Part shown: piece after piece, positions 3,211 through 50,896 of the stretch
Layout: each line of letters starts with the position of its first letter
How positions within the stretch are numbered: the stretch's first letter is position 1
From: a virus
Length of the DNA stretch: 64,000 bases
Strand: one strand, 5' to 3'
IMG/VR virus record: IMGVR_UViG_3300013114_000098
The notes under the pieces: generated by a model
What the model saw: the letters and a program-made list of their open reading frames with translations, nothing else
Databases searched by the model: none
Told to the model about the DNA's origin: nothing
Made by a program: the position numbers and the translations under genes

Positions 3211-3219
3211 GTATTTATC
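3211..3219 (-). promoter_or_regulatory. T4-type late promoter
   Basis: GATAAATAC, 18 nt upstream of ATG 3193. Confidence 0.75.
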
Positions 3220-37349: not shown

Positions 37350-37949
37350 TTATGCTACGCTAGGTCCATAAACAGAAAGAATAGACCAGCCTGCACTTGT
37401 ATAAATCATCTCTACACTTTGACCAGCTGTTGTGAACGCTACAGTACTGAAACCGTTCGCTGTACTAGGAGTTACAACAACTGTACCGGCTGGTGTCGCT
37501 GTAGTAACTATAACTTTTCTCTCACCCTCTATACCGTTTGATAGTGATAGTGCTAAATCTGTACTTGCGTCTACGTATACTGTGCCTCTAGTATCTAGTG
37601 AAACAGAATTTGTAGCTGACTTTGTTAATATTACTATTTTTTGTAAATACCCAACATTCCATGGATTAGTGTTACTACCTATATTATATTGTATGCCTGA
37701 GTCTATATTAGGTATAACATCGCTACTGATATTGGCATTTAATGTTAAGGAACCGCCTCCGTTACCTAGTGATATAACATCTCCGTTTACAACAAGGGTG
37801 CCTCCGATATACATATTACCGGCCGCATACGTTCCACCTTTATTATAAAGAGATGCACCTACTGGATCAACAGGAGATACGCCAACATCCAATGTGTTGG
37901 TGCTTTCTATAACTAATGTTCCAGAATCTGGATTAATGTGTGATGACAT
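37350..37949 (-). CDS. Hypothetical structural protein
   Basis: 199-aa beta-rich ORF; late promoters at 37972-37980 and 37992-38000. Confidence 0.7.
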   Translation of the reverse strand: MSSHINPDSGTLVIESTNTLDVGVSPVDPVGASLYNKGGTYAAGNMYIGGTLVVNGDVISLGNGGGSLTLNANISSDVIPNIDSGIQYNIGSNTNPWNVGYLQKIVILTKSATNSVSLDTRGTVYVDASTDLALSLSNGIEGERKVIVTTATPAGTVVVTPSTANGFSTVAFTTAGQSVEMIYTSAGWSILSVYGPSVA

Positions 37950-38025
37950 AATACTTTTTTCCTACTACTTCCTATTTATATAATTATATATGTATTTATC
38001 AAAGGTAAGATGTTTTGAACTGTCA

Positions 38026-38063
38026 TAAGAAAAGACACATTAAATTAATAATGCGTCTTTTCC
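38026..38063 (-). terminator. Terminator closing the ncRNA unit
   Basis: gaaaagacgcatta...taatgtgtcttttc followed by tt on the minus strand. Confidence 0.6.
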
Positions 38064-38076
38064 GTTAATAAGTTAA

Positions 38077-38285
38077 ATAGGTAGGACTTGGTTACACCTA
38101 CAAGCCGGAAACACAGATACCATTCTATAATTCCAGCAACCTAACCCCGCCAGTGACTGCGATGTGACTCCCTCTGTTTTCCAGATAAAGCCTGGGTACC
38201 ACCCCTGGTTAGTCAAGTTAGAGCCTCTGGTAAGACCCTCTTCCTTGCACTATTAACAAAAAGTAATTAGTTTTTTGTTACTTAT
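38077..38285 (-). ncRNA. Putative structured ncRNA (~200 nt), family unknown
   Basis: No credible ORF, GC-enriched, several stems, own promoter and terminator. Confidence 0.7.
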
Positions 38286-38291
38286 GTGTTT

Positions 38292-38320
38292 AATATATAA
38301 CAGTTTTGCCTAAAGGTCAA
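38292..38320 (-). promoter_or_regulatory. Sigma70 promoter for the ncRNA
   Basis: TTGACC-17-TATATT with upstream A-tracts. Confidence 0.7.
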
Positions 38321-38357
38321 CCTTTTTTTTAATCTTTTTTTAATTTTATCCACAGCC

Positions 38358-38389
38358 AAAAAAATAGGCCCATTTCTGAGCCTATTTTT
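38358..38389 (-). terminator. Terminator after the major capsid gene
   Basis: aaaaataggc...gcctattttt, bidirectional. Confidence 0.8.
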
Positions 38390-38417
38390 ATGTAAAAAAT
38401 TGTATTCTAGTAAAATA

Positions 38418-39587
38418 TTACTGGAATGACAAGTTACTTGCGTTAACATCAATTTTAGAAACGTAGTCCGCCGCATTACCAAGAGATGAAGCCTGGTTAT
38501 TTAGCTCAACATAGCCATAACGTGTCATAAATGATACTGTTGGCTCGAATGTTGCCGGATCTAATACTGTGCCTGAAGACATTAGTGGAATGTATGGGCA
38601 ATAAAATGCTGCCGCATCAATTTCACCGTCGCCTTTATAGCCAACTAGTACTGGAGCATTATCTGCCGCGTACTGGTCAACAAAAACACGCATAGTGCCA
38701 TTCAAAGTACCTACAAATTTAGTATTTGTTGGAGCTTCAAAAGGTCCTTCAGTTGTTCTTGCGAACGCTGAAGTTGTTGCACTTTGTAGTACTGTTAACA
38801 TAGTTGGTGAAACAACGACATAGTTACCTGCACCACGACGTGTTCTTGCCGCGATTAGGTTAGCTGATCTGTTTATAAGAACTGCTAGTGCCGCATGTTG
38901 GTCTCCAACGAAAGTTGCTGTACCTGATACTGAACCTTGGTCATATGTATCAGTTGCCGCGCCTGCTAATGTACGTAGTGAACCGATCACTTCTTGATCA
39001 ATCTCAGCAGTAATTTCTTGGGCAAGTGCCTGCATAATTTCTGCTTCAACGTCTAGACCGTGCATTGCGTTTGCGTCTTGAGCCGCTTCAAACGTCCAAC
39101 GAGCACTCAATTTACGAGTTTTCGCTTCAACTGTTTGCTTCAATACTTGGATAGAAAGTTTCTTTCCAGCTTCTGCTTCTAAAGAAGAAGTTGAAGTTGC
39201 TGCGCCTGCTGATGCGTTTGCATCACCTGAGTATCCTTTTGCAATTGCAAATGGAGATAAAGCTTCATCACCTGCTGAAACGCCTGATGCTGTTTCGCCA
39301 TATCTTACTCTAAGTGTATGTATTTGTCCTACTGGACCTGTCATAGGCTGTACGCCTACAAGTTCGTTTGCGATAACTGTTGGCATCACACGTCTGATAA
39401 CTGGAAGAATCACTTTGTTAAGTGATGCAACGTTACCCGCCATAGTTGTGCCAGCTGTAGCTGATTCTGAAAGGTAGCTCTTAGTGTTTTCAAGAACTGA
39501 TTCCATTACAACCTTTTTGTTACCTTCTAAGCCATCTGTTAGGGCGTCTTTTGTAACGTCCCAATTTTCAAATAGATTCTGTGTCAT
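38418..39587 (-). CDS. gp23: Major capsid protein
   Basis: LPVIRRVMP..IA.ELVGVQPMTGP.GQI..LR, VEAKTRKLSARWTFE, EIDQE, AFYCPYIPL, FMTRYG. Confidence 0.97.
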   Translation of the reverse strand: MTQNLFENWDVTKDALTDGLEGNKKVVMESVLENTKSYLSESATAGTTMAGNVASLNKVILPVIRRVMPTVIANELVGVQPMTGPVGQIHTLRVRYGETASGVSAGDEALSPFAIAKGYSGDANASAGAATSTSSLEAEAGKKLSIQVLKQTVEAKTRKLSARWTFEAAQDANAMHGLDVEAEIMQALAQEITAEIDQEVIGSLRTLAGAATDTYDQGSVSGTATFVGDQHAALAVLINRSANLIAARTRRGAGNYVVVSPTMLTVLQSATTSAFARTTEGPFEAPTNTKFVGTLNGTMRVFVDQYAADNAPVLVGYKGDGEIDAAAFYCPYIPLMSSGTVLDPATFEPTVSFMTRYGYVELNNQASSLGNAADYVSKIDVNASNLSFQ

Positions 39588-39599
39588 TTGGAATTCTCC

Positions 39600-40700
39600 T
39601 TAGTTGATTCCTGCTAACTTTTTAAGGTTAATAATTTCGGCTTCACTATCCGTGTTTGCTGGAGTGTTAGCCTTGTTACCGGTAATCTCAGTCTTCTGAG
39701 ATTCTGTTAGTGTTTTTTGTGAATCTTTGTTTGTGCCTGACTCATTAAGTACCGTTGGTAGGTATTTGTTGAATTGGGCTTTTAACTTGCTTGTAGCTAT
39801 GCTTTCAAGTAAGTTGTTCATTAATTCACGTTTATCTTTGGCCAAAGGAGACATAAGTTCAGTTATAACTGCCTCACGCTCACGGCTTTCATTAATTCTA
39901 GCAACTTCATTTGTTGCTTCAGTAATTTTTGCCTCTTTAGCTTCAATTTCTTTTTGCGATTCTTCAATTTGAGTCTTCGCATCTGAAAGTTCTTTTGAAA
40001 GTTTTGAAATATGTGTTCCCTCAGCGATATGCGAACCCATAAACTCAGCCGCAAAAGTTTCGAACAGTTTACGTCCGAACATATTTTCTTTTGCCTGCTT
40101 AATATCTTCTTTTAACGTACCTAATTCTGTTGTAAGTGTCTTATCAACAATAGTAGCTAGTTTTGTAGAAGCCTTGTCTATGAAGTCAGTTTTTGCTTTG
40201 GTAATCATTTCTTTACCTTCTGCAACAAGTTTTACCTTTTGTTCAATAAGGTCTTTCTTGTCTTTATGGAATTCATTAAGTTCTGAAGTAAGTTGTTCCA
40301 TCACAAAGTCTTCTAACTTCTCAAAATTGCTTTCTTGAAGTTTTCTGTCGTTGCGTAGTTCGCCAATTTCCTTTTTAAGTGTTTCCATAACAAACTTATC
40401 AAGGAGCTCAGCATGTTCTGCGATTTTACGTTTATACTCAACTTGAGATTCAACTGCCGCTTTTTTATCTGCTGCAAATTCTGCTAATTCAGTTTTAATT
40501 GTATCTGATACCATTGCATCTAGTGCTTCCACCATTTGCGTTTTGTCAGTTTCATATCTGTTAGCGAATTCTTCACGTAATTCGGCAGTGATCTCTTCAC
40601 GAGCTTCACTTAATCTTGCTTCCCATGCTTCTGAAAGTGTTGAACGCACTTCCTCAGATAGGACTTCTGAACTTAGGAGTTGTTCTATTGCATTTGCCAT
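39600..40700 (-). CDS. Prohead core scaffolding protein (gp22-like)
   Basis: Coiled-coil protein between the protease and MCP; ends LKKLAGIN. Confidence 0.8.
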   Translation of the reverse strand: MANAIEQLLSSEVLSEEVRSTLSEAWEARLSEAREEITAELREEFANRYETDKTQMVEALDAMVSDTIKTELAEFAADKKAAVESQVEYKRKIAEHAELLDKFVMETLKKEIGELRNDRKLQESNFEKLEDFVMEQLTSELNEFHKDKKDLIEQKVKLVAEGKEMITKAKTDFIDKASTKLATIVDKTLTTELGTLKEDIKQAKENMFGRKLFETFAAEFMGSHIAEGTHISKLSKELSDAKTQIEESQKEIEAKEAKITEATNEVARINESREREAVITELMSPLAKDKRELMNNLLESIATSKLKAQFNKYLPTVLNESGTNKDSQKTLTESQKTEITGNKANTPANTDSEAEIINLKKLAGIN

Positions 40701-41330
40701 TTAGCTTCTCCTAATATCTAGTTTTTCAATGAACTTTAATACTTCCTTCTGGAGGTATTGATTTGCTATTGTGTCGTCTTTTACTGCGGATGCAACGTCA
40801 AGTAAGATGTTACCACGTTTACCATTCATAATTTGTTCATATAAAGGGTCTGGGTAAGCATCTGGTGCACTTGGATTAGCAACAAGATCAACTGTTTGAA
40901 TTTCAAACTCGCTAACATTGCCGCTTTCTGTTACATTTCCACTACCTCTTGACGAAACGCCAAGTTTTACTCCATTCTCTATAAGGGTTTTACAAATATT
41001 TCCCATTGGAGTAGGTAACAGTTTTAATCGACCATAACCGTCTTGACCGTCCATCCACATTTTTTCAATCATGTGACTAACACGGTCTAAATTAACTTGC
41101 AAATCATCTGGATGATCTGCCTCGCCTAAAACCGAATATCCAGTTTCAATTTTTTCTTGTATTGCTTTAACAGCTTTTGAAATTTCATTAACTGGGTAAA
41201 CTCTTGAGTTTTGATTACGAGTATTTCCTTGTACAAAGATACCTTGCATAAAAAGGCTTTTACCGTCCTGAGCTGTCTCAGTTATGATTTTAGCCTGATC
41301 ATATGTTAGGTTCTCTTTAAGTGTAAGCAT
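40701..41330 (-). CDS. gp21: Prohead protease
   Basis: GIFVQ...N.N.RVYP, LGEADHP, RVSH, PTPMG, LGVSSRGSG, DLVANPSAPDA. Confidence 0.95.
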   Translation of the reverse strand: MLTLKENLTYDQAKIITETAQDGKSLFMQGIFVQGNTRNQNSRVYPVNEISKAVKAIQEKIETGYSVLGEADHPDDLQVNLDRVSHMIEKMWMDGQDGYGRLKLLPTPMGNICKTLIENGVKLGVSSRGSGNVTESGNVSEFEIQTVDLVANPSAPDAYPDPLYEQIMNGKRGNILLDVASAVKDDTIANQYLQKEVLKFIEKLDIRRS

Positions 41331-44266: not shown

Positions 44267-46264
44267 TTAACCGTTTATGTAACCCATTGCAATTCTGGCT
44301 TCTTTGCTAAACTGAATATTCTCTTTTATTTGAATTTCTTTTTCAAGTGATGTTATCATTAATTTTGTTAATCTTATCTGTTCCTCTATTTGCCTTTTCT
44401 TTGCGTTTCCTACCGCACCAGAAAAATCCCTAGGAGTATTAGTTATTATATTAGGATTTGTAAGAGTTGTCAACCTTTCTTTCAACATTGGAAGGTCTTT
44501 TTCAGTTGCATTTGCTGGTAAATCAGCTACATTTTCTAAAACAGTCGTAGCTGACACTTTAGATGTGTCATTTTTACTAGAATTTACTGTATTATCTTTA
44601 GATTCTACTGTAGCATCGCTATCTTCTTTATAATCATTAAATAAACCATTTAACCAATCTGAACCATCAGCTAATAATCCAGTTACAAATTCCAACTTCT
44701 CACCCATATCTTGCATAGGATATGTAATAAACTCTTGGGCTGTTAGAAACATTTTTGACATATCATTCATTGCTACAGTTGATTTACCACTTGCTTCTTG
44801 CATTTTTGCTTGAATCTTTTTTTGTTCTTCCATATTTACGCCTTCTAACTTACCAAAGTTTTGCATTATTAAGTATAAACTATTTTGCAAACTCTGTACT
44901 CTACCAATACCTTGATTACCTGCGGCAACGGCCGCTAATCTTTCTCTATCATATGTTGCTAATATATCTATTAAAAAAGTTTCAGATAATTTACCACCTG
45001 TAGTTTCTGCATCTTGAACTGTTTCATTAATTTTTGTAAGTAATCCAGGAAGTGCTACTTCTAAAGCACCTACTGCTTCACCATCCATTGCACGTAATAC
45101 TTGTATAATATCAAAATTACCCATATTGTGAGAAAACTGAGCTGTTGCATTATTCATTGCTGTTTGTACTTGTCCCAATAAATCAGATGGTCCAACATCT
45201 GAAAATAGAGAAATTTGTTTTGCAAGAGATTCAACTACGTCTGCTGTTTTTTCTAATCCTTGATCTTCTATTGCCGCAAGTCCTGCCGCTAAGTTTGTGT
45301 CTGACAATGCACCTAACATTTTTGCCATTGTCTCACCTCTAGTAAGTGCTGTTAAGTTTGCTATTGCTCCTGATTCAAGTACTAATGATTTAAAACTAGC
45401 CTCAAGTGCTTCACCTTCTCCTACTAGTTGTTTATCTAACTGTCCTGTTATACGTTGCGTTTCTATATAACCTGCATAAGCATTCATTAAATCTACGTTT
45501 GACATACCCAAGTCACCTAATATTTCTGAATTATCAGAAAGTCTTTTAAACATTCCTATATATGCTTGAGCACCTCGAGATACATCTCCGCCTATGCCTA
45601 CCATTGTTCCACCAAAATTACTAATAATTGATGCAAAACTTTTATACGTTATACCTGCTTGAAAACTGTCTTTATATAATTGATCAAATACATCAGCAGT
45701 GTCATATACAATAGCACCGGAGTCTATCATCATTTTTTGTACTTCAGCAAACTGTTCAAACTTGGCTGCATTCCAACCTGCCCATGCTAACCCAATATCT
45801 ACTGCTACGTTGGCTACTTGTCCTAAAGTTTTTGTCATCATCTTAGCAAATGGAATTTGTGCCGCTGTACTTTTGTCTAACTTGCCTGACGCTCCTTTAA
45901 GTTTCTTTACTATATCTTCAGTCGCACTAACCATACTAGTTAATGGCTTCTCTGAATCACCAAAGAAAGTAGCAGTGTCTTTTATTTGCTGTGCACCTTT
46001 TAATAATAAACTTGATCTACCTTTTGCATTTTCTTCATTTGCCTTAGAATTTTTTACTCCAATTTGTAAATTCTTTTCTACTGCTTCTATAATTTCATCA
46101 TCTAACTTAGTGTTCTTTTTAACATCACCTAACATTTCTTTAGTAAGAGAAACTGCATTCTTTGATTGCATTGCCAATGCTTCCATTGTTGTTTCACTTG
46201 CCCAAGCTGGTACCTGAAGTATTAAATCATCTGAAATTGGTATTTGATTTGTTTTATCAGCCAT
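44267..46264 (-). CDS. Tape-measure-like protein 2
   Basis: Long helical, Ala/Gly-rich; paralog of the upstream gene. Confidence 0.6.
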   Translation of the reverse strand: MADKTNQIPISDDLILQVPAWASETTMEALAMQSKNAVSLTKEMLGDVKKNTKLDDEIIEAVEKNLQIGVKNSKANEENAKGRSSLLLKGAQQIKDTATFFGDSEKPLTSMVSATEDIVKKLKGASGKLDKSTAAQIPFAKMMTKTLGQVANVAVDIGLAWAGWNAAKFEQFAEVQKMMIDSGAIVYDTADVFDQLYKDSFQAGITYKSFASIISNFGGTMVGIGGDVSRGAQAYIGMFKRLSDNSEILGDLGMSNVDLMNAYAGYIETQRITGQLDKQLVGEGEALEASFKSLVLESGAIANLTALTRGETMAKMLGALSDTNLAAGLAAIEDQGLEKTADVVESLAKQISLFSDVGPSDLLGQVQTAMNNATAQFSHNMGNFDIIQVLRAMDGEAVGALEVALPGLLTKINETVQDAETTGGKLSETFLIDILATYDRERLAAVAAGNQGIGRVQSLQNSLYLIMQNFGKLEGVNMEEQKKIQAKMQEASGKSTVAMNDMSKMFLTAQEFITYPMQDMGEKLEFVTGLLADGSDWLNGLFNDYKEDSDATVESKDNTVNSSKNDTSKVSATTVLENVADLPANATEKDLPMLKERLTTLTNPNIITNTPRDFSGAVGNAKKRQIEEQIRLTKLMITSLEKEIQIKENIQFSKEARIAMGYING

Positions 46265-49949: not shown

Positions 49950-50418
49950 ACTTGACAAGATGCTTTATTCACACTTAGCCTTATACAGGCCAAGTGTAAA
50001 TTGTTCTTGACATAGAACTCTACCCACAGATACTATAGTAAACCTAGTTTAGCACCTAGGAAGGGCGGTTACGCGGTACCCTTATTACATACTGCTTTAT
50101 AACGCAGAAACACCCATTGCCATAGTATCAACTTTGGGTTGTCCTCAAGTTCCAAATTGTCAGGAGAGCTTGATCATTTTGATTTGTCAAATCAGTGCAT
50201 TGACTTATAGGCACACCAGTTCTGGTCACAATGAAGTAACCTCAAGGTGAGTCGAGCGAATCTCGACCAATCAGGGCCTTGTAGCCTATGTTAGTTTTTA
50301 TTAGCCTAAAATTGTATTTGAGTTGGAGCCGGACTTTAAGTCTGTATGAGTTTTGGTTTTACACTATTAGTTATCTTATGCTTTAATTATTAGCTGATAA
50401 TAAAGTTAAAACGCTACT
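49950..50418 (-). ncRNA. Putative large structured ncRNA (structured core ~49960-50290)
   Basis: Lies in a ~630-bp gap with no ORF; nested long-range helices; sigma70 promoter upstream. Confidence 0.65.
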
Positions 50419-50424
50419 TTTGTT

Positions 50425-50453
50425 ATAATAACAAAAATTTAATACGTTGTCAA
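50425..50453 (-). promoter_or_regulatory. Sigma70 promoter overlapping the GIY-YIG stop codon
   Basis: TTGACA-17-TATTAT. Confidence 0.75.
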
Positions 50454-50896
50454 CCTTTCTTTAAGTGTTCCGTAAGAATTTTTGAACTACCCACCCTTAC
50501 GTTAATAATGCCGTTATAGTATTCATCGGTTTCTAATACTCTACGGTCAAATTGTTCTTTTGCTTCCATGTAACTTAATACACCTTTACTAGGACAATAA
50601 TGTAAAATTTCTCTAGTAAATTTATTTGAACCAAGTGTTAGGACATCTGCGTTTAAATGATCTGATGACCCCCAATAGTCTTGCCAATCACTTTCTTTAT
50701 ATCCACGTCTTTTATTCTTTTTACCTTTAAGTGGTGGCTTAGTTGTTTTAAATCTTGCTAGTTTTTTACCTATGTATTTTTTATTGTTAGTAAGATTTGT
50801 AATTACATATACAAATCCTTCGCAATCATTAGGTAATTCATTGACTATTTTATTTTTATATGTCCATGGACAATTATTCTTCTTTGACCCATTCAT
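50450..50896 (-). CDS. GIY-YIG family endonuclease (catalytic domain only)
   Basis: GFVYVIT...KKYIGKK...YWGS...FTREIL...EAKEQ...YYN. Confidence 0.8.
   Translation of the reverse strand: MNGSKKNNCPWTYKNKIVNELPNDCEGFVYVITNLTNNKKYIGKKLARFKTTKPPLKGKKNKRRGYKESDWQDYWGSSDHLNADVLTLGSNKFTREILHYCPSKGVLSYMEAKEQFDRRVLETDEYYNGIINVRVGSSKILTEHLKKG

Follow-up and report, generated by a model that had tools for sequence, protein, structure and literature searches.

A manA-family RNA in a predicted stand-alone cassette behind the major capsid gene of a probable marine jumbo phage

Can an RNA that is catalogued as a putative riboswitch be a phage gene in its own right? The question is raised by a short unit on the minus strand of the virus record IMGVR_UViG_3300013114_000098, of which we analyzed a 64,000-nt stretch (hereafter, the window, to which all coordinates refer). 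The unit lies directly behind the major capsid gene, at 38026-38320, and these limits, taken from a preliminary description of the locus, coincide exactly with the -35 box of a promoter on one side and the end of a terminator on the other. With moderate confidence, we propose that the unit is a self-contained "RNA moron", that is, a cassette carrying an RNA of the manA family (Rfam RF01745) that would be expressed early and act as a homo-oligomeric particle. The RNA is a canonical-size member of an already catalogued family, not a new RNA class, and the instance itself is therefore not a discovery; what is added here is the free-standing cassette architecture, an additional terminal helix (P0), the hotspot and moron-like setting, and the covariation of interfaces that hold RNA cages together.

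The manA motif was described from marine metagenomes, T4-like cyanophages and two gamma-proteobacteria, and was called a likely cis-regulatory element and riboswitch candidate, located upstream of mannose/fructose, nucleotide, ibpA and photosynthesis genes (Weinberg et al. 2010, PMC2864571). Its role was still listed as unverified in a 2023 cyanophage paper, and it is still treated as a putative cis-regulatory element in the study that solved five manA RNAs by cryo-EM, all of them pentamer-based, with structures obtained in vitro only (bioRxiv 10.64898/2026.07.01.735769).

Family assignment and covariation of the fold

When the whole window was compared with Rfam 15 (cmscan), RF01745 was the sole match at the gathering threshold (57.8 bits, with a curated gathering score of 55.2 bits; whole-window E 3.8e-12), covering model positions 1-192 of 192. 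The preliminary description had seen no signature that it recognized and had itself listed a known-family match in cmscan as the outcome that speaks against novelty; such a match is what the scan produced, and we regard membership in the manA family as nearly certain. All consensus helices from P1 to P9 align to the window, forming a P1 hairpin and a junction, closed by P2, in which P3, the P4 three-way junction (P5-P7), P8 and P9 are nested. The conserved sequence blocks of manA are also present, namely, GUG after P2, GGUGGU in the loop of P5 (L5; other loops are named likewise), UAA/AAC around P3 and GGU...CC...CCU at P9/P2, as read from the cmscan alignment and from columns invariant in 12 relatives. 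ARAGORN found no tRNA or tmRNA, and weak Rfam hits to STnc370, STnc50 and snoR775 at 38332-38431 (E 0.7-0.9) proved to be merely the terminator of the capsid gene.

The proposal that the unit encodes a structured non-coding RNA is borne out by its relatives, which were collected from IMG/VR capsid-gene relatives and by a DNA pattern scan. The Rfam manA model matched in 11 of 50 related records, always beside the capsid gene, and scores in relatives ranged from 36.6 to 67.6 bits. Our own covariance model (R1), built from five close relatives with the Rfam-derived structure, gave 75 matches, 69 of them distinct; neither this model nor the whole-window gathering scan matched anything at 49950-50896 of the window. 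In the alignment of these 69 distinct relatives from viral contigs, which was fitted to R1 and so leans towards the tested structure, standard pairs fill 93.5% of pair cells, compared to 66% in shuffled and 35-49% in slid controls. Two-sided compensatory changes, predicted for homologs of a genuine structured RNA, occur at 49 of the 58 pairs in 12 helices, and the covariation score is 0.665 versus at most 0.116 in slid controls, with none of 500 shuffles reaching the observed value. P4 (CTAACC/GGTTAG) is 99.5% paired, with covariation at 6/6 pairs, and an unfitted MAFFT/RNAalifold run on 12 sequences recovered 19 covarying pairs. Judged by this covariation, the fold of the manA core is real.

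Measured against the Rfam alignment and the covariation, five of the helices drawn in the preliminary description are right: CAAG/CTTG (P3a), GGG-GTGGTA-CCC (P5), TCTG-GAAAA-CAGA (P6b), GCTGGA.../...TCCGGC (P8) and GTAGG/CCTAC (P9). A further one, given as GAGGGTCT/AGAGGCTC, exists with its register off by one base, the real pairs being GGGTCT/AGGCTC; TGACT/AGTCA and AGTG/CACT conflict with the covarying P4, P6a and P2 and have to be abandoned, and P1, P2, P4, P7 and P0 had been missed. The RNA is indeed richer in G+C than the flanking spacers (0.42-0.44 compared to 0.28-0.32), although not "roughly half" as initially put. The view that no credible reading frame is present also holds: a 47-codon TTG frame at 38073-38216 was rejected as coding on account of in-frame stops in 72 of 73 aligned sequences, all except the window itself.

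The terminal helix P0 covaries among relatives (AAGC/GCUU, AUGC/GCAU, UAGC/GCUA), and the complementarity of matched ends is above that of all shuffles (0/500 permutations/shuffles reach the observed value). By closing the RNA, P0 would seal it off ahead of the terminator.

Free-standing gene or leader of the next gene

Behind the capsid gene, a terminator, an A-tract, a promoter, the G+C-richer stretch, a hairpin terminator and two late-promoter-like motifs follow one another before the next open reading frame (ORF), as listed here in the direction of transcription:

38418-39587, minus strand: major capsid protein gene, the upstream neighbor of the RNA (phrog_138 major head protein, E 2e-101)
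38356-38389 (approximate ends), minus strand: intrinsic terminator of the capsid gene, a 13-bp hairpin (-18.3 kcal/mol, z -5.5) followed by U7
38322-38352, minus strand: UP-element-like A-tract 5' of the promoter, read from the sequence
38292-38320, minus strand: sigma-70-type promoter TTGACC-17-TATATT (-35 box at 38320-38315, -10 box at 38297-38292, 17-nt spacer)
38280-38285, minus strand: predicted transcription start (A at 38285, 7 nt past the -10 box) and 5' strand of P0, AUAAGU
38071-38277, minus strand: core of the manA RNA, P1-P9 (RF01745)
38068-38073, minus strand: 3' strand of P0, ACUUAU, paired with 38285-38280 in the minimum-free-energy (MFE) fold
38025-38063, minus strand: the RNA's own terminator, consisting of an A-tract, a 15-bp hairpin (38063-38028; -19.1 kcal/mol, z -8.4) and UUUUCUUAU
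37972-38000, minus strand: late-promoter-like motifs for the next gene, GATAAATAC (38000-37992) and TATAAATAG (37980-37972)
37350-37949, minus strand: 199-aa ORF (start at 37949), downstream of and outside the RNA unit

The preliminary description had placed the unit correctly. The promoter matches the consensus at 10 of 12 positions, and most relatives likewise have an A-rich tract 5' of the -35 box. The terminator of the capsid gene is strong and would insulate the RNA unit from late read-through, whereas that of the RNA can be read as a core stem (38057-38034) followed by UUUUCUUAU. For the predicted transcript of 260 nt, the folding z-score is -5.5, and both the RNA fold and the terminator are present in the MFE structure of the full transcript. 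This layout recurs among the relatives: TTGAC-16/17-TATAxT ends 4-13 nt before the start of the manA model in 57 of 70 distinct contexts, and a strong hairpin with a T-run, located a median of 4 nt past the model end, is found in 30-35 relatives (about half; 30 distinct contexts), with stem sequences that are unrelated to one another.

The next gene appears to have a promoter of its own. The T4 late promoter consensus is TATAAATA, of which we take GATAAATAC to be a variant. Twelve copies of GATAAATAC are present in the window against 1.1 expected, most of them 20-60 nt upstream of the start codons of structural genes, an enrichment from which we conclude that GATAAATAC is probably the late-promoter element of this phage; one copy sits between the RNA terminator and the 199-aa ORF, for which no Pfam or PHROG family was matched. 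A sigma-70-like promoter in a phage with T4-like late promoters fits the early expression that had been suggested for the RNA, a step that draws on T4 biology.

The published annotation of the family (Rfam; Weinberg 2010, PMC2864571) suggests a different reading, in which the RNA is a cis-regulatory leader or riboswitch that senses a ligand, the hairpin at 38063-38028 serving as an expression platform that gates early read-through into the 199-aa ORF. Consistent with this, other family members directly precede genes with no terminator in between, the strand is the same for the RNA and the ORF, and the U-tract of the window's terminator is imperfect. However, no antiterminator was found: duplexes of the terminator's 5' arm with the 3'-terminal 90 nt of the RNA have energies like those of shuffles (mean z -0.4, n=30), and with stems unrelated between loci and no excess complementarity to the RNA, an antiterminator in the cassette was rejected. 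Rather than being exclusive with the aptamer fold, as in a riboswitch-type platform, the terminator coexists with the RNA fold in the MFE structure, and P0 closes the RNA ahead of it. Nor is the RNA in a 5'-UTR position at this locus, where the terminator (38063-38028) and then the late-promoter motifs (38000-37972) lie before the next ORF; that position is a contextual descriptor behind the "Cis-reg" type and not part of the RF01745 model. Moreover, the genes downstream of the cassette differ among relatives, falling into several unrelated clusters, and one relative (L035/L083) carries the cassette behind the capsid gene on the opposite strand, with its own promoter and terminator, converging on the 3' end of the capsid gene, where there is nothing to regulate. 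We consider a riboswitch at this locus improbable.

Because promoter and terminator are conserved, no antiterminator was detected, the next gene has a late promoter of its own, the downstream genes are unrelated and one cassette is inverted, the RNA is, in our assessment, quite likely an independent transcription unit, in line with the stand-alone gene first proposed. The comparison argues against the cis-regulatory or riboswitch-candidate label for this locus and for the capsid-adjacent clade, in which the RNA itself would be the product. We make no such case against the cis-regulatory reading for the manA family as a whole. At 12 loci, manA stands behind TTGACA-17-TATAAT without a terminator and is followed by a 60-95-nt CA-rich spacer and a gene that we take to be gp32-like, judging by eye from its N-terminal sequence and by synteny with Pelagibacter phage Mosig; at other loci, manA is located 12-25 nt upstream of rubrerythrin or other genes. 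The gp32-like arrangement belongs to another phage group (L125:1193-1265, L152:2623-2683, L103:6720-6789, L192:3432-3501 and 8 similar loci), and its spacer before the ribosome-binding site (RBS) is apparently unstructured. The autoregulatory leader of T4 gene 32 combines a structured 5' element with an unstructured tract, and manA with a CA-rich spacer before a gp32-like gene may be analogous to it.

Members of this kind also bear on another explanation, under which manA is a generic 5' stabilizer or insulator, capping messages against 5'-end-dependent decay, and the present copy is a relic that has lost the message body and has little function. In its favor, the RNA opens a sigma-70-driven transcript in every context, with its distance from the promoter held constant; in some phages a gp32-like or rubrerythrin gene comes after it, and accessory genes turn over at the spot behind the capsid gene. 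A relic, however, would decay, whereas the stand-alone form, with promoter, terminator and full covariation, is kept across many divergent phages that share no more than 72-93% identity in their capsid proteins. For a cap, a simple 5' hairpin would suffice, and the covariation between loops described below would be left unexplained. We give this explanation very little credence.

Loop-loop pairings and the proposed RNA particle

The cryo-EM structures of manA RNAs provide specific contacts that can be compared to the loops of the phage RNAs. In the manA_A0F1 RNA, L5-L7' and L8-L9' kissing loops and an L1-L1' contact between pentamers hold together a T=1-like 60-mer cage; 67AA, pho_A28C and pho34_A767 are decamers, 6FAB forms both an octamer and a decamer, and the Photobacterium manA decamers use L6-P6' (GNRA-receptor), L5-L7' and L3-L8' contacts (bioRxiv 10.64898/2026.07.01.735769). 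We took every hairpin loop from the alignment and compared the complementarity of all loop pairs with that of permuted pairings (1000 permutations). Only L5-L7, L8-L9, L3-L8, L1-L1 and L9-L9 were above all 1000 permutations, whereas L5-L8 (GGUACC/GGUAUC), the tertiary pairing of the preliminary description, was at chance level and was discarded.

In the window, the loops are complementary as GUGGU/GUCAC for L5-L7 and UGGU/ACCA for L8-L9. At the same L8/L9 positions, at least 10 distinct complementary combinations occur among the relatives, with types that include, besides that of the window, GGUA/UACC, AUGGAA/UUCCAU, AGGA/UCCU, AUGA/UCAU, GAGA/UCUC and GCUGA/UCAGU; in our own reading of the published sequence, the A0F1 RNA has CUGU/ACAG here. 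The L5/L7 types comprise UGGUA/UACCG, UAGU/ACUA, UUGUC/GACAG and UUAU/AUAG in addition to that of the window, and GUUGCA with UCGGCAGA, as we read these loops, allows a further one, UUGC/GCAG. As judged from this covariation, two published intermolecular interfaces, L5-L7 and L8-L9, are maintained by evolution in this phage clade.

The other pairs are less telling. For L3-L8 (UACCA/UGGUA in the window), complementarity is confined to the window's clade and is not kept up where L8 changes; we therefore treat it as a possibility and not as a conserved contact. L1 of the window is ACUAAUUAC, a 9-nt loop with the palindrome UAAUUA, and related loops hold AUUAAU, UAGCUA or UUAUAA; palindromes of at least 6 nt are found in 26 of 48 distinct L1 regions, several of which are stem-plus-tetraloop artefacts. 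An L1-L1' contact is suggestive only, given that L1 is AU-rich and that palindromes are not rare by chance.

The roles entertained in the preliminary description (ribozyme, anti-defence RNA, protein sponge) found no support in the present analysis. The sole mechanistic evidence at hand is the conserved loop-loop complementarity, which matches the published homo-oligomer interfaces of manA and points to self-assembly: as L5/L7 and L8/L9 are kept complementary and are intermolecular in other manA structures, we propose a homo-oligomeric particle. We envisage that host sigma-70 RNA polymerase would initiate at about 38285, as suggested by the promoter and its conservation; that the RNA would fold into the manA core, whose fold is established by covariation, closed by P0; and that transcription would end at the RNA's own terminator near 38028. 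The resulting RNA of ~258 nt would be the product itself, not the leader of the next gene with its own late promoter, and from early infection on would form a homo-oligomeric particle, as the loop covariation and the cryo-EM structures of other manA RNAs suggest, with scaffolding or sequestration as conceivable roles.

The same cassette could also produce a monomeric trans-acting RNA, in which L5-L7 and L8-L9 pair intramolecularly and the compact fold binds a protein or small molecule as a sponge or decoy, close to the idea of the preliminary description, the oligomers being an in vitro artefact. The evidence for a stand-alone cassette is identical under this alternative, P5/P7 and P8/P9 are neighboring hairpins, and a tentative manA pseudoknot was drawn by Weinberg et al. 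2010 (PMC2864571). Against it, there are at least two inter-monomer loop contacts in each of A0F1, pho_A28C and pho34_A767, and L5-L7' is intermolecular in these three and in manA_67AA (bioRxiv 10.64898/2026.07.01.735769). With P8 (~10 bp and internal loops) and P9 (5 bp) being of very unequal length and separated by a 2-nt joiner, a kiss in cis would be awkward, and the 6-nt palindrome of L1 cannot pair inside its own loop. The monomeric alternative thus appears rather unlikely.

Several points weigh against the oligomeric RNA moron that we favor. The RF01745 score is just 2.6 bits over the cut-off, and the start, end and timing of the RNA are predictions. The U-tract of its terminator is interrupted (UUUUCUUAU), so that some read-through into the 199-aa ORF is possible, and terminator-less members 12-100 nt upstream of start codons (gp32-like, rubrerythrin and IbpA-like genes) show that the 5'-UTR arrangement is real elsewhere, such that the family may have a cis role. 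Covariation cannot tell pairing in cis from pairing in trans, and sequence alone cannot separate intermolecular from intramolecular loop contacts. The L1 palindromes are AU-rich, and palindromes of at least 6 nt appear in 16.5% of shuffled loops. Finally, the observation of oligomers is limited to in vitro conditions with high RNA and Mg2+ concentrations and to other members of the family (bioRxiv 10.64898/2026.07.01.735769).

On balance, a functional homo-oligomer in vivo may well exist, although we place its chance slightly below even. Tentatively, and with more doubt, we would go further and suggest that manA could be an autonomous phage gene and not a riboswitch, whose RNA product assembles in the infected cell into a closed RNA-only particle (a pentamer-based decamer or 60-mer shell), the cassette of early promoter and terminator beside the capsid gene of marine jumbo phages being its natural, selectable form. 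If this is true, it would be the first case in which the in vivo relevance of an RNA cage is backed by loop-loop covariation and gene architecture. The manA motif has been an orphan riboswitch candidate since 2010, and its cages were shown in vitro in 2026 without biological context (bioRxiv 10.64898/2026.07.01.735769). At this locus and in ~30 relatives, manA appears as an insulated unit with nothing to regulate, in which the loop pairings that hold the cages are preserved; the focus accordingly moves from "which ligand?" to the role of an RNA particle during infection. The locus offers concrete objects for such work, namely, the predicted ends at 38285 and ~38028 and loop pairs that are open to trans complementation.

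Insertion site, carrier phage and known systems

The cassette is present in 21 of 80 capsid relatives, in 20 on the strand of the capsid gene and in 1 inverted, and is missing from the other 59. Among 17 relatives that lack manA and could be read with enough downstream sequence, approximately half have the next late gene immediately behind the capsid terminator, and in the remainder other accessory genes occupy the spot. Given this patchy distribution and the other accessory genes at the same spot in relatives, the site just behind the capsid gene is, by genome comparison, an accessory-gene hotspot, and the cassette is built like a moron with RNA cargo.

By eye, the spot behind the capsid terminator holds a metallophosphoesterase-like gene (L003:3660-4080), a membrane protein (L004:1250-1670), a PstS-like periplasmic binding protein with its own sigma-70 promoter (L005:3660-4080) or a lipoprotein-like gene (L027:3555-3975) in individual relatives, and phage PA5oct has an annotated Hef-like homing endonuclease there (L215:3807-5384). 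Downstream of the manA terminator, several relatives (L023:3775-3845, also L085, L087-L091 and L093) share a conserved leader after the late promoter of a structural gene whose product starts with MGRPLNKR; this leader, absent from the window, contains GGACUUAUGCGG...CCGCGUAGACCUAGAACGUCA and a hairpin before the RBS and may be a second cis-acting RNA element.

The carrier is probably an uncultured marine jumbo myovirus of ~350 kb, a size that follows from the 123 kb of the virus record and its estimated completeness of 34%. Its capsid protein shares 68-70% identity with the counterparts in three jumbo phages, PA5oct, Vibrio phage 2.275.O and Sinorhizobium phage Phosso; no RF01745 match was found anywhere in the genomes of these three cultured relatives. 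A blastn search against cultured phages gave Pelagibacter phage Mosig as the only match, with an unannotated manA (64 bits; MT647606.1 108164-108371, L001:4026-4241) that ends ~22 nt before a rubrerythrin gene. Mosig is thus a cultivable manA carrier that can be used as a test system.

Nearly all genes around the RNA unit are on the minus strand, in the arrangement of a T4-like head-gene block that includes, further upstream:

40701-41330, minus strand: prohead protease
39600-40700, minus strand: scaffold-like protein

The GATAAATAC sites of the window are at 3211, 8141, 9847, 16480, 19789, 26630, 28936, 37992, 44252, 48249, 54819 and 54979. The only other match of the window to GTTGAC-N16-18-TATANT is GTTGACA-17-TATAAT at 44445-44474 (minus strand), inside a 665-aa ORF (44267-46264) and ~190 nt upstream of a GATAAATAC site, which might be an internal promoter or a chance occurrence.

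Compared with the manA motif as catalogued, the window RNA shows a full-length match, the same nested architecture, a marine phage source, and the common conserved blocks AUAGUG, GGUGGUA and GUAGGU...CCUACCUAU. It departs from the family, which was described in 5' UTRs, in having its own terminator followed by the late promoter of the next gene, in the extra helix P0 outside the model, in a 9-nt palindromic L1 where the consensus is GACG, and in its carrier, a jumbo phage of the PA5oct/Vibrio 2.275.O capsid lineage and not a cyanophage or Photobacterium. The likeness to the cryo-EM oligomers extends to the numbering of helices and loops, which is the same as derived here, to L5-L7 and L8-L9 at positions equivalent to the A0F1 kissing loops, and to L3-L8 (UACCA/UGGUA), which resembles the L3-L8' contact of the Photobacterium RNAs; however, the particles were seen for other members, whereas the window RNA is known from its sequence, and L6 of the window is a pentaloop, GAAAA, where relatives have the GNRA-type GAAA.

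Other large and ornate non-coding RNAs of phages or bacteria, ROOL, GOLLD, OLE and raiA, are often phage-borne and form symmetric RNA-only multimers, dihedral rings, through kissing loops. They are 2-4 times longer than manA and unrelated to it in sequence and fold, the manA shell being pentamer-based, and the gathering scan gave no Rfam hit to any of them in the window. The closest parallel in gene organization is offered by the morons of lambdoid phages, which are self-contained inserts of promoter, gene and terminator between late genes. Like these, the cassette described here has its own host-type promoter and terminator, lies between two late structural genes, is patchily distributed among close relatives, and sits where relatives have other accessory genes; unlike the lambdoid morons, it carries an RNA, not a protein, as its cargo.

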